The notes beneath the pieces are model-generated. The model was not told the DNA's origin and did not search any database. It worked only from the letters and a program-made list of their open reading frames with translations. 64,000 bases of DNA from an uncultured delta proteobacterium (lineage in GTDB: Bacteria; Myxococcota_A; Polyangia; Polyangiales; Polyangiaceae): the NCBI GenBank assembly GCA_963696385.1, contig CAVOKF010000003.1, forward strand, positions 128,001 to 192,000, written 5' to 3'. Positions 47,045 through 50,874 of this stretch are shown one piece after another; the first letter of the stretch is position 1; each line of letters opens with the position of its first letter. Both the position numbers and the translations under genes were made by a program.

Positions 47045-47566
47045 TCAGCGACCTTCATCCACCTCGAGCCGACTCGGAACGAACTCGCTCGACCGCGCGT
47101 CCCACACGAAGAGCCTGCGATCGTCGACGTTGCCGTCGCGCACGCTGGTAACCAGGTAGGCGAGATCCCACGGCGGCTCGCCCTGTCCCATCTTCGCAAC
47201 CTCCGCGTCGGTGGCAGAGAAGTACGCCCCGACGTCCAGATGAGAATGATACAGCACCTTCACGGGGCGTCCGTCGGATTCACCGCGACCGATGGCCTCC
47301 TCAAACTTCCTCGAGTCGATGTCGAAGTAGGTCCGCCCCGTACGGGGGTATTGCTCCGGATCGAATCGATGCAGGCGGTTGGCGCGGTTAACCATCGGGA
47401 CCAAGCCGTCGATCCGCAGACCGTCCTGGGCGGGACCGACGAGAAAACCGCAGCTCTCCTCGTCCGCAGCGTACGATCGCCGGGCTTCCTCGTCGACCCG
47501 ATCGAGCACGGAGCGGGGTATGACGAGATCACCATCGATCCAAGGATGTTTTTTGGGGTCGCGCAT
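47045..47566 (-). CDS. JAB/MPN+ metallopeptidase (Mec-like)
   Basis: EESCGFL; YHSHLDVGAYFSATD (HxH-x7-S-x2-D). Confidence 0.93.
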   Translation of the reverse strand: MRDPKKHPWIDGDLVIPRSVLDRVDEEARRSYAADEESCGFLVGPAQDGLRIDGLVPMVNRANRLHRFDPEQYPRTGRTYFDIDSRKFEEAIGRGESDGRPVKVLYHSHLDVGAYFSATDAEVAKMGQGEPPWDLAYLVTSVRDGNVDDRRLFVWDARSSEFVPSRLEVDEGR

Positions 47567-47594
47567 TGCCCTAGATAGCTCTCGGAGGGATACC

Positions 47595-48539
47595 TTACCA
47601 AACGTATCTGCGCTCCCACCGGATGGGAGCGAAGTAGCGATCGCCACGATCGCAGACGATCGCTACGACGCACCCGGAGCGACCCGATTGCACGAGCTCT
47701 CGCGCGACCTGGAGGGCGGCGAATACGTTCGCCCCCGACGAATGCCCGACATGAAGGCCCTCCTCTCGCGCAAGTCGATCGGCGGTGTCCCACCCATCCT
47801 CGGTCGATACGTGGAAGGTCCGGTCCGGTACGCGAGCGTCGTAAATGGGCGGAACGAGGCTCGTCGCCAAGTGCTTCAAGCCCTCAAGACCGTGCAACGC
47901 CTCGGCGGGCTCGACGGCGATGCATTCGATCCGGCGGGGCCATTCTTTGAGGCGCCGCGCGCAACCCATCATCGTGCCCGTCGTGCCGAGACCCGCGACG
48001 AAGTGGGTCACTCGGTCACCCAACGCCTCCAGGATCTCGCGCCCGGTTCCGTCGTAGTGGGCGAGCCAATTCGACGGATTGGAATACTGATCGGGGTAAA
48101 AATAGGCGTTCGAATCTTTGGCGACGATCTCGCGCACGACGCGGATGGCTCCGTCCGATCCCTCCATCGGGTCGGTGTAGACGATATCGGTCCCGAAACT
48201 CCGCACGATGTCTTTGCGTGCTTTGGTTACATTCGCAGGCATAACCAGGCGAACTCGAATGCCAAAAATCGCCCCAAATATCGAGTAAGCGACACCCGTG
48301 TTGCCACTCGTCGAGTCGATCAAGATCTTGTCGCGCGTGAGCCTTCCATCCGCCAACGCGTCCTGCATCATCCGAAGAGCGGGCCGGTCCTTCACACTCC
48401 CGCCCGGATTTGCAAACTCCAACTTCGCCCAAATCTGCACCCCTGCGAGCTCGCGGGCGATGCCCCTCAGCCGGACCAGCGGAGTGTTGCCGACGGCGTC
48501 GACAATCGATTCGATACGTCGGCTTCTGCCGGCTCTCAC
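47595..48539 (-). CDS. cysM: PLP-dependent cysteine synthase (CysM-like)
   Basis: GNTPL, NPGGSVKDR, STSGNTG, GLGTTGT, GLEGLKH, DRGDRY. Confidence 0.85.
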   Translation of the reverse strand: MRAGRSRRIESIVDAVGNTPLVRLRGIARELAGVQIWAKLEFANPGGSVKDRPALRMMQDALADGRLTRDKILIDSTSGNTGVAYSIFGAIFGIRVRLVMPANVTKARKDIVRSFGTDIVYTDPMEGSDGAIRVVREIVAKDSNAYFYPDQYSNPSNWLAHYDGTGREILEALGDRVTHFVAGLGTTGTMMGCARRLKEWPRRIECIAVEPAEALHGLEGLKHLATSLVPPIYDARVPDRTFHVSTEDGWDTADRLAREEGLHVGHSSGANVFAALQVARELVQSGRSGCVVAIVCDRGDRYFAPIRWERRYVW

Positions 48540-48892
48540 GGTACACCCTCCAGCACGGCGCGCACCGTACGCAGAGCAAAGTGAGCCCCATCGGCCAGAG
48601 CCTGTGCGGCCGGGTCGCGAAATCCGAACGGACCCGGAGCACGTTCGACGGCAATGGCCGGGGCGAATTCGACGCGCACCGACGGATCCATCGCGCGCAG
48701 CGTCGCCGCGAGCGCGGGGTCGCGCACACGCACCCTTCGTGCACCGGCGCCCACTAGGTAGCCACCCGCGACCTCAGCGGCGAACCCGTCGAGCGGTACG
48801 TCGACGCTTGCGCGCGCGATCTTGGTCTGACCCATAGACCCAACCTCGGCGAGCCGGGACTGGCGCCCGTGCCGGTCCATCGTTGCGCTCAT
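48536..48892 (-). CDS. Truncated ThiF/MoeB-like pseudo-E1 (118 aa)
   Basis: RHGRQSRLAEVGSMGQTKI matches the MoeB N-terminus; Gly-rich ATP loop degenerate; 4-bp overlaps on both sides. Confidence 0.7.
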   Translation of the reverse strand: MSATMDRHGRQSRLAEVGSMGQTKIARASVDVPLDGFAAEVAGGYLVGAGARRVRVRDPALAATLRAMDPSVRVEFAPAIAVERAPGPFGFRDPAAQALADGAHFALRTVRAVLEGVP

Positions 48893-49161
48893 CCGCCTGC
48901 AATCGCGGGCACGATACTGATCTGATCGCCCGTATTGAGCTTCGTTTTCAGTCCGTCGAGAAACCGAACGTCCTCTTCGCCCACGTAAATGTTGATGAAG
49001 CGTCGAACTCCACGTTCGTCGAGCAACCGTTCACGTATCCCGGGATGCCGACGCTCCAGATCGTCGATCAGTTCGCCGACGGTACCGCCCGAAGCCGTTA
49101 CCTCGTCGGCTCCGCCGGTCAGCGTTCGCAGCGGCGTTGGAATGCGTACGATGGTCTCCAT
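48889..49161 (-). CDS. MoaD/ThiS/CysO ubiquitin-like sulfur carrier
   Basis: VRIPTPLR..FINIYV..EDVRFL..IVPAIAGG. Confidence 0.95.
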   Translation of the reverse strand: METIVRIPTPLRTLTGGADEVTASGGTVGELIDDLERRHPGIRERLLDERGVRRFINIYVGEEDVRFLDGLKTKLNTGDQISIVPAIAGG

Positions 49162-49180
49162 TGGCAATCTCTCCTCTCGG

Positions 49181-49903
49181 TCAGCCTGCACACGGGCGCG
49201 GATCATAAGCGGCCGGCTCGATCCGTCGAATGCGCGGAGCCGCGCCGCAGAGGGCGCAGTCGATGCGGGGCTCGATCGTGCGACGCCGCAACATGTCGGT
49301 ACGCCCGTCGAAGGTCACCAACTGCCCGGAGATCGCATCGCCGTCGAGCCATGAAAGAGTCCAGTCGACCTGCGCAGCGGCAACGACGCCCAGCACGGGC
49401 CCCATGACGCCCGCCTCGGCGCAGTTGGGCGCATCGTCGGTGGGCAGGTCCTCGAAAAGGCACCGATAGCAGGGTCTGCCGCGCGATCCGACGCCAAGAA
49501 CCGTGCCGATCCATCGGACCGCCGAAGCATGCACGATGCCCACGCCAGCGAACATGCACGCGTCCGCCGCAAGAAATTTCGTCGCGAAGTTGTCGCTGCC
49601 CTCGACGACCACGTCGTACTGTCGCACGATCTCCATGGCGTTGGCGGGCAGCATGCGGGTCGAGTGCGCCCGGATCTTCATGTCTGGAGCCCGCCGACGG
49701 AGCTCCCGAACGGCCGCGTCCACCTTGGGCGCGCCGACGTCACCGTCTCGGAAGAGGATTTGGCGGTGCAGATTGGTCGCCTCGACGACATCGTCGTCGC
49801 AGATGCCCAAAACTTCGATGCCAGTCTGCGCCAGCGCAAGGGCGGCCGGACAACCGAGGCCCCCGACTCCGAGGATGAGAACGCGCGCGCGCGCGCGACT
49901 CAC
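49181..49903 (-). CDS. moeB: MoeB/ThiF family E1-like adenylyltransferase
   Basis: GVGGLG, DDVVEATNLHRQ, GSDN, CYRC, CAEAGV, CALC. Confidence 0.92.
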   Translation of the reverse strand: MSRARARVLILGVGGLGCPAALALAQTGIEVLGICDDDVVEATNLHRQILFRDGDVGAPKVDAAVRELRRRAPDMKIRAHSTRMLPANAMEIVRQYDVVVEGSDNFATKFLAADACMFAGVGIVHASAVRWIGTVLGVGSRGRPCYRCLFEDLPTDDAPNCAEAGVMGPVLGVVAAAQVDWTLSWLDGDAISGQLVTFDGRTDMLRRRTIEPRIDCALCGAAPRIRRIEPAAYDPRPCAG

Positions 49904-50874
49904 CGACCGGCCTCCGGAAAGTACTCCTCCAGGCTAAAGTATCGCTCGCCCGTGTCAGGCAGGACGGTCACGACGTTCTTGCCCATTCCGAGCTCTCGCG
50001 CGACGTCGAGTGCAGCGTGAACCGCCGCGCCGGCGCTGATGCCCACGAGCAGCCCTTCACGGCGTGCGAGTTCGACCTTCATACGCCACGCGTCCGAGTC
50101 GCTGACCGTGCGCACCTCATCGACGACTTCGGGGTGATAATTTTTCGGAACGAAGCCTGCGCCGAGTCCCTGAATCTTGGTCGGGCCGCGCTCGTCGCGC
50201 GAAATGGTTGCGCAGGACTCAGGCTCGACGGCGACGATCCGGGGTCGGGGCGAAAGCTGGTGACGCAACGCTTTGCCCACACCGCTGATCGTTCCGCCCG
50301 TGCCCACCCCCGCCACGAACGCGTCGATATGCAAGCCGTCCATCGCTCGGATGATCTCCTGCGCCGTGGCGTGCTCATGAATGTTCGGGTTGGCCGCGTT
50401 CCCGAACTGATCCGGCAGGAACGCCCCAGGGGTCGTGTCTGCGAGGGCTCGCGCCGCAGAGACTGCCCCGGCCAGCTGTTCGGTCTCCGGCGTGAGCACG
50501 ACCTCGGCTCCGAACGCCTCGAGCAATTGGCGGCGCTCGAGGCTCATGCTCTCGGGCATCGCCAGAATGCACCGGTACCCACGAACCGCGCAGACCAAAG
50601 CAAGGCCGACTCCGGTGTTTCCGCTCGTGGGCTCCACCACGACACCGCCCGGCTTCAGACGTCCCGTGCGTTCCGCGTCGTCGATCATGGAAAGAGCAAT
50701 GCGGTCCTTGACCGACCCGGCCGGATTGGCCTGCTCCATCTTGGCCCAGACGGCCGCCCTGCGACCCGGGCGCCCGGGCGTGCGGATGGCGATGAGCGGC
50801 GTCTCGCCGACCAGATCGAGCACGCTTTCGGCCAGTAGGAGCGGAGGCGCCGAGGAGCGCTCAGGCATCGTCAT
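49900..50874 (-). CDS. cysK: Cysteine synthase A
   Basis: NPAGSVKDR, EPTSGNTG, GVGTGGT, KIQGLGAGF, PDTGERY. Confidence 0.93.
   Translation of the reverse strand: MTMPERSSAPPLLLAESVLDLVGETPLIAIRTPGRPGRRAAVWAKMEQANPAGSVKDRIALSMIDDAERTGRLKPGGVVVEPTSGNTGVGLALVCAVRGYRCILAMPESMSLERRQLLEAFGAEVVLTPETEQLAGAVSAARALADTTPGAFLPDQFGNAANPNIHEHATAQEIIRAMDGLHIDAFVAGVGTGGTISGVGKALRHQLSPRPRIVAVEPESCATISRDERGPTKIQGLGAGFVPKNYHPEVVDEVRTVSDSDAWRMKVELARREGLLVGISAGAAVHAALDVARELGMGKNVVTVLPDTGERYFSLEEYFPEAGR

Follow-up and report, generated by a model that had tools for sequence, protein, structure and literature searches.

A putative asymmetric two-subunit E1 with a miniature inactive subunit in a sulfur-carrier operon of the Polyangiales

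We analysed a 64,000-nucleotide stretch of DNA from an uncultured delta proteobacterium of the family Polyangiaceae (assembly GCA_963696385.1, contig CAVOKF010000003.1, positions 128,001 to 192,000 of the forward strand; this whole stretch is referred to as the window, and coordinates are counted from its first letter). On its minus strand the window carries a six-gene operon that encodes, in order of transcription, a cysK-like enzyme, a ThiF/MoeB-type activating enzyme (E1), a ubiquitin-like protein (Ubl), a small protein, a CysM-like enzyme and a JAMM peptidase. The E1 lacks the N-terminal arm that is present in its relatives, and the small protein carries such an arm on a shrunken E1 fold that has lost its catalytic motifs. 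In the explanation that we favour, and regard as probable, the two proteins constitute an asymmetric two-subunit E1 with one active site, in which the small subunit is a miniature inactive adenylation domain that supplies an arginine in trans. That the enzyme is a heteromer of an active and an inactive E1 unit is well supported in silico.

The catalytic subunit (49181..49903, minus strand; 240 residues) is a ThiF domain alone. The Pfam ThiF profile (PF00899) matches its residues 5-213 with 196.4 bits (gathering threshold 28.1), the match extending from position 20 to position 233 of a 238-position profile, and no rhodanese domain, catalytic-cysteine (Cys) domain or ubiquitin-fold domain (UFD) accompanies it in Pfam searches. 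The NCBIfam models for MoeB, ThiF and UbaA tell the same story, as the match of the E1 begins 20-40 positions into each of them. In 23 sequences the glycines G12, G14, G15 and G17, the N44-Q48 segment (NLHRQ), K60, D104 and N105 are invariant, as are C145/C148, C216/C219 and the CAEAG segment that starts at C161. Judged as a member of the MoeB/ThiF family, the protein has the expected ThiF score and catalytic motifs and lacks the N-terminal helix with the trans-acting arginine finger. An earlier reading of this DNA from its letters alone (the sequence-only reading) had described an E1 without its arm that keeps the ATP loop, the NLHRQ segment, two CxxC motifs and CAEAG, and that starts on the cysK stop; our searches bear out each of these points, and the E1 GTG (49903-49901) and the TGA that ends the cysK-like gene (49902-49900) indeed overlap.

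The absence of the arm is a property of the gene rather than of its annotation. A pattern search located the first strand of the E1 at 23 loci of the genus, and there a start codon precedes this strand by 3-11 residues and falls mostly on the cysK stop; the E1 is also short at two further genus loci that the search missed and that were read by eye. No arm can be hidden by a wrong start, because the upstream DNA is occupied by a full-length cysK-like gene (NCBIfam cysK match over profile positions 3-296 of 298). Several relatives have an in-frame stop 10-14 residues upstream of the E1 start, and together these two observations rule out both a mis-called start and a frameshift that conceals the arm. 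An arm-like motif upstream of the E1 and in frame with it was found in 0 of 75 relatives (75 examined of the best 80 relatives in GTDB). The close relatives of this E1 in a collection of 5.8 billion proteins likewise comprise ~240 residues and bear generic names only.

On the other side of the Ubl gene, an open reading frame at 48536..48892 (minus strand; the small ORF) encodes 118 residues, or 114 if translation begins at a second ATG at 48880, which is the start that most relatives use. As the sequence-only reading had it, this coupled frame opens with the arm motif, continues into a degenerate nucleotide loop and encodes no cysteine; the remainder of the protein comprises a degenerate half of a Rossmann core and a C-terminal helix. 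Its homology to the arm, first strand and first helix of E1 enzymes is clear from profile searches. A profile of the small protein built across the whole order aligns with the N-terminus of the canonical rhodanese-MoeB in hhalign (columns 2-55 against 126-179) with a probability of 97.5% and an E-value of 7.9e-12, and in an hmmsearch of PDB sequences it matches the N-termini of the solved structures of Uba4 (8.3e-9), ThiF (3.6e-8) and MoeB (9.5e-6). In the reverse direction, positions 1-52 of the NCBIfam ThiF model match the small protein at an E-value of 0.003, and the model TIGR02356 reaches 16.9 bits against its cut-off of 275. The arginine of the Arg-Gln pair in the arm, the G..GQ motif and a glycine in the first long helix are invariant in 25 genus-level and 24 order-level sequences. 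The arginine in question (R10 in the 118-residue numbering; the R10-Q11 codons lie at 48860..48865, minus strand) is a candidate trans-acting finger on the strength of this invariance (25/25 and 24/24) and of the modelled interface described below. The residues for ATP binding and catalysis are gone: the columns of the glycine loop are degenerate, and NLxRQ, CxxC and cysteine are all missing. An AlphaFold2 (AF2) model with a pLDDT of 87 contains three strands and five helices and was judged to have an E1-type Rossmann-like fold. Structural alignment places residues 2-118 of this model on residues 5-217 of MoeB and 2-214 of ThiF, ranges that are compatible with, and do not prove, descent of the C-terminal helix from a late E1 helix. 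Judged from its sequence, the small protein is a size-reduced, catalytically dead E1 paralog that has kept its arm.

The sequence-only reading had called the enzyme a 'split' E1, a label that we withdraw. The small protein duplicates the first strand, the first helix and the second strand of the E1, and it is therefore a shrunken paralog and not one half of a divided gene. Gene fission was rejected on these grounds, as the repeated elements (the strand-helix-strand core plus a helix) exceed the 20 residues that the E1 is missing. No longer, fused form of the small protein was found at E <= 1e-8 among 8000 candidates, which is weak evidence.

Conservation leaves little doubt that the small ORF is a genuine gene. 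Since the frame lacks a Pfam family (none at E <= 1) and since high-GC DNA abounds in spurious frames, one could suspect an E1 gene copy in decay after duplication or rearrangement, or a frame that arose by chance in GC-rich DNA, but this idea, which we rate as very improbable, is already refuted by the conservation of the frame. An unbroken copy, with 42-91% identity, is present in 24 of 24 further genomes of the genus and in one genome of another family, and the gene order of the operon is unchanged among the genus relatives. Ratios of nonsynonymous to synonymous changes (dN/dS), computed by the Nei-Gojobori method for the three closest pairs, come to 0.20, 0.30 and 0.36 in the small protein and to 0.21, 0.13 and 0.09 in the E1; the small protein looks to be under purifying selection that is looser than that on the E1. 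Two of the outcomes that the sequence-only reading had named as fatal to it, a lack of conservation and a pseudogene-like dN/dS, were not found. Against 1.84 billion representative sequences, a profile search produced 874 matches with E <= 1e-10; the top 150 of them all have a length of 92-157 residues and are matched nearly from end to end. One unpublished genome (G010, locus L003) contributes a single row to each of our alignments A1 to A3 and is one of the 24 genus genomes; another genome, G147, enters a single tally, and our claims are independent of both.

The small protein also accompanies the arm-less E1 across the order. Scanning GTDB genomes with the E1 alignment yielded 582 relatives, from which the best 80 were kept, all of them Polyangiaceae or Myxococcales records and including the cultured Labilithrix luteola DSM 27648 (L065). 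Of these 80, 76 carry the small ORF close behind the arm-less E1 gene, and in the remaining four the contig ends right after the E1. At loci from other families of the order it sits between the Ubl gene and the CysM or JAMM gene in 12 of 14 cases, a draw of loci from the phylum added four in family f9 and two in family f1, and the seven best loci from other orders encode ordinary proteins of ~380-435 residues that have their own arm and stand outside any such operon. Co-occurrence of the two genes, which had been proposed as a check on the pairing, is hence the rule, with genus g79 (discussed below) as the exception. The genes are coupled as well: the first ATG of the small ORF overlaps the TGA of the Ubl gene, its own TGA is overlapped by the GTG of the CysM-like gene, and the NTGA overlap between the stop of the small ORF and the start of the next gene is kept in 25 of 25 loci.

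To the genetic evidence we can add a predicted complex, another check that had been suggested. The E1 (with alignment A2) and the small protein (with alignment A1) were modelled together with ATP, and the interface score (ipSAE) of the pair was 0.92, as compared to 0.01 for the best of three controls. Of 157 solved complexes 116 reach the mark for such scores, as do 2 of 215 mismatched pairs; this is a rough yardstick given our own alignments and the added ligand. At least 96% of the contacts agree between runs, and the pLDDT of the partner is at least 88. In the model, the arm of the small protein (D6-V17, including R10 and Q11) lies on T43-G54 of the E1, the segment that contains NLHRQ and R47, as well as on R130-W131, and R10 is placed next to R47 of the E1. 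The first long helix of the small protein (F37-G50) meets the equivalent E1 helix (P19-T27), and the helix at its C-terminus (A95-R111) lies against the helix E163-S184 of the E1. The modelled geometry is that expected if the small protein replaces the second protomer of an E1 dimer. Of the active/inactive heterodimer that had been postulated from the sequence, the heteromeric pair is supported in silico, and the notion that the pair arose by splitting is not.

On these grounds we propose the following mechanism. The small protein would bind the arm-less E1 at the surface through which MoeB/ThiF enzymes homodimerise, and the resulting pseudo-dimer would have its single active site completed by the N-terminal helix of the small subunit, which would lie across the ATP site of the E1 and supply R10 in trans. 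The active subunit would then adenylate the Gly-Gly C-terminus of the neighbouring Ubl, which, as a thiocarboxylate, would carry sulfur to the CysM-like enzyme; release of the product would fall to the JAMM peptidase, as in the CysO-type pathway.

Several observations weigh against such a two-subunit enzyme. Some concern the ancestry of the small protein: Foldseek alone returned no match for it at E <= 0.001, its direct profile comparison with the partner E1 (A1 against A2) is weak, covering 19 columns in the expected register with an E-value of 0.0025 and a probability of 12%, and its C-terminal helix picks the expected late helix of canonical MoeB in hhalign at a non-significant level (E-value 0.016, probability 2.8%) and matches nothing in A2. 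Another concerns the arginine itself. MoeB and ThiF have their finger supplied in trans, and the fingers of both (R14 in MoeB, R11 in ThiF) are non-essential while TcdA is without one, according to the available portion of the source (PMC13139853). A further one comes from genus g79 (L130 in genome G069; L143 in genome G138), in which the same operon contains an arm-less E1 and the stop of the Ubl gene abuts the CysM start, leaving no space for a gene in between. The order-wide profile detected no stand-alone small protein elsewhere in four of four g79 genomes, where it matches only the canonical MoeB of ~390 residues, and an arm-less E1 can therefore persist without a small partner. Because other genera of the same family (g65, g73, g82 and g97) carry the small ORF, its loss from g79 is the simpler reading, as inferred from taxonomy.

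The g79 operon and the reportedly non-essential fingers speak for an accessory or regulatory cap, the main rival to the two-subunit enzyme. As a cap, the small protein would bind the dimer face and either adjust the activity, stability or stoichiometry of the E1 or prevent it from homodimerising, and it would be dispensable for catalysis, with the E1 active by itself as a homodimer or as a finger-less monomer. The faster evolution of the small protein, visible in its identity within the genus (42-59% as compared to 59-69% for the E1) and in dN/dS, fits this view too. We nevertheless consider a cap rather unlikely, as the arm, its arginine and the G..GQ motif are invariant across the whole order, which is more than a cap would seem to require, and as the near-universal co-occurrence and the NTGA coupling point to stoichiometric co-production. 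The small protein might also not bind the E1 at all, and instead dock a sulfur donor, CysM or JAMM, or pair with the canonical rhodanese-MoeB. The evidence for E1 binding is a predicted complex, and its high score may reflect the likeness of the pair to E1 dimers, which are well represented among solved structures and for this reason may mislead, instead of true binding between these partners. In addition, one locus fuses the small protein to JAMM and not to the E1, and the genome encodes a second, complete ThiF protein of 396 residues with its own arm (rhodanese at 21-113, ThiF at 132-376; G000 contig C5:1271837-1272571, L013:1441-2628), which is likely the housekeeping MoeB/MoeZ enzyme and is a possible sulfur donor or alternative partner. 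A non-binding role is improbable in our view, however, since the complex model is strong relative to its controls, the small protein has retained the arm plus a pair of helices which, in the model, contact the corresponding helices of the E1, and across loci the small protein tracks the arm-less E1 rather than canonical MoeB.

The two-subunit enzyme described above can be read more strongly still. It is possible, although we hold this tentatively, that in the Polyangiales the arrangement is obligate and evolved independently of the eukaryotic one, with a protein of ~100 residues made of dimer-face helices and an arginine arm as the indispensable partner. If so, no inactive adenylation unit smaller than the small protein would be known, and the pair would be a living example of the passage from symmetric MoeB/ThiF dimers to asymmetric E1s.

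The other genes of the operon, assigned by Pfam and NCBIfam searches, are those of a sulfur-carrier system. The first gene (49900..50874, minus strand) encodes a cysK-like, pyridoxal phosphate (PLP)-dependent cysteine synthase (PALP 253 bits; NCBIfam cysK 374.5 bits, cut-off 350.95). The Ubl (48889..49161, minus strand) is a MoaD/ThiS-type protein of 90 residues that resembles CysO and SAMP proteins (Pfam ThiS 60.9 bits; NCBIfam SAMP1 52.7 bits, under the cut-off of 60) and ends in Gly-Gly, and this C-terminus is conserved in its relatives. Its start is most likely at 49161, behind a GGAG-rich stretch, rather than at 49206, as judged from the position conserved among relatives. Downstream of the small ORF lie a CysM-like PLP enzyme (47595..48539, minus strand; PALP 219.5 bits, NCBIfam cysM 329 bits and thereby below its cut-off of 394.2) and a JAMM/Prok-JAB peptidase that resembles Mec and desampylases (47045..47647, minus strand; Prok-JAB 42 bits, cut-off 25). 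The true start of the latter is probably near 47566, as relatives align from residue ~27 onward. Near-best NCBIfam names are SAMP1 for the Ubl, SAMP-activating E1 for the E1 and desampylase for the JAMM protein, every one of them below its cut-off. None of the six operon proteins belongs to a conjugating-enzyme (E2) family in Pfam or NCBIfam. The flanking genes, an M19 dipeptidase and a CNNM/CBS/CorC protein, are on the opposite strand and outside the operon.

This gene set is shared with two known systems, namely operon type 4c of Iyer et al. 2006, which comprises a ThiS/MoaD-like Ubl, an E1, a JAB peptidase and a cysteine synthase in the portion of that survey available (PMC1779556), and the CysO-CysM-Mec/MoeZ cysteine pathway of actinobacteria and mycobacteria, as outlined in the accessible text of its source (PMC3227635). 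The MoaD/ThiS-fold carrier with its Gly-Gly end is present here, and CysM and JAMM candidates exceed the PALP and Prok-JAB thresholds, yet NCBIfam cysM stays below its cut-off. Both of these systems use an E1 with a fused rhodanese (MoeZ type), whereas the E1 described here has neither rhodanese nor arm, and an additional small-subunit gene stands between Ubl and CysM of which the available portions of these sources make no mention. With MoeB and ThiF of E. coli (PDB 1JW9/1JWA and 1ZUD/1ZFN) the 240-residue subunit shares its fold and catalytic motifs, and the N-termini of these enzymes align to the first ~60 residues of the small protein. MoeB and ThiF, however, are symmetric homodimers with an arm on each chain; the present operon places arm and active site on separate gene products, and the chain that bears the arm has been cut to about 114 residues and is inactive.

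The sequence-only reading had further likened the pair to the eukaryotic heterodimers NAE1(APPBP1)-UBA3 and SAE1-SAE2, a comparison that survives in part. One active and one inactive adenylation-type unit are encoded together, and in this respect the design is similar. The inactive subunits of the eukaryotic enzymes are full-size, with over 300 residues, whereas the small protein has a third of that (114-118 residues; 92-157 in its relatives), and their active subunits possess both a UFD and a catalytic-Cys domain and pass their cargo to an E2, none of which this operon encodes. The system is thus outside the NAE1-UBA3/SAE1-SAE2 group, although by design it would work like it, and the resemblance looks independent rather than the product of a shared origin. 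Closer parallels exist. In BilD, from the Bil antiviral ubiquitination system, inactive and active adenylation domains form a pseudo-dimer in which Arg9 comes from the inactive domain, and other known bacterial E1-like proteins are homodimers, as the accessible part of the BilD paper states (bioRxiv 10.1101/2023.09.26.559546). BilD is the closest bacterial precedent, but it joins both domains and a Cys domain in one chain, has an E2 partner and functions in phage defence, whereas we find two genes, a minimal inactive unit and a context of sulfur metabolism. Within the ThiF family the closest precedent is yeast Tcd1-Tcd2, a ct6A dehydratase in which an inactive paralog complements the active site of its partner with an arginine finger, in the available text of the report (PMC13139853); this enzyme is eukaryotic, both of its chains are full-length and its substrate is a tRNA rather than a Ubl. 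In open-access papers and bioRxiv, we found no account of a sulfur-carrier E1 with a small partner that bears the arm. The 2009 treatment of the E1 superfamily by Burroughs et al. may be relevant to this point.

Variants of the operon were observed at individual loci. Many E1s of the clade end in a short tail with a cysteine 2-3 residues from the end (Pro-x-Cys-Ala-Gly type; 49181-49210 in the window), and this tail also occurs in the g79 form that lacks the small ORF; in an E1 without a rhodanese, the tail cysteine could be a mobile sulfur-accepting or attacking residue. In two draft genomes the E1 gene extends over two frames (L004 in G005, L006 in G012) and gives two tblastn pieces in each, either by assembly error or by true frameshift, and both E1s were excluded from A2. 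An apparent fusion of E1 and Ubl occurs in two sister genomes, as a single open frame of 316 (L009:538-1485, G001) or 315 residues (L012:541-1485, G023), with Pfam placing ThiF at 4-216 and ThiS at 231-316, and the Ubl part retains its Gly-Gly end. At L072:3513-4337 the small protein and JAMM share a 275-residue frame with the arm-bearing part at the N-terminus and Prok-JAB at residues 131-237, a fusion that, as far as gene structure can tell, ties the small protein to the same system. A gene for an Rrf2-family regulator (134.8 bits) lies immediately upstream of cysK at L130. Finally, E1, Ubl and small protein, with or without JAMM, occur at L026 (G004), L035 (G111), L141 (G077), L149 (G154), L142, L146 and L147. 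Because neither cysK nor CysM was matched in the fetched sequence of these loci, the E1-Ubl-small(-JAMM) core may be a module independent of cysteine synthesis, and it may conjugate the Ubl to proteins in a SAMP-like manner.

The operon is also present in environmental sequence data. DNA nearly identical to it (47045-50874) was detected in 14 metagenome runs from soil, peat and wetland, belonging to eight studies, with 42-95% of the sampled words; one of these runs may be the source of the window itself. Six metatranscriptome runs contained 5-11% of the sampled operon words. RNA-library contigs from four runs cover the operon at 93-95% likeness, and they come from a relative and not from this strain. 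Two of them bridge the junction between the Ubl and small-protein genes (X15 record 2, 48683-49562; X18 record 18, 48794-49124) and one bridges the junction between the small-protein and CysM-like genes (X15 record 1, 47045-48595); such cover is no proof of transcription, as DNA can occur in RNA libraries, and gaps in it are uninformative.

Asymmetric E1s have so far been seen as a hallmark of ubiquitin-type activation in eukaryotes, with the fused BilD as the only bacterial case described in the literature available to us. The operon described here suggests another path to asymmetry, taken by a sulfur-carrier E1: loss of the arm from the catalytic chain, together with reduction of a paralog to an arm-and-interface module of ~100 residues. 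If this is true, the pair would provide a minimal and tractable system for learning what the second protomer of an E1 supplies, be it the arm, the arginine finger or merely an interface, with genus g79 as a natural control that has no small subunit. It would also assign a function to a large, unnamed family of 'hypothetical proteins' of soil and peat myxobacteria that comprises at least 150 clusters at 50% identity.

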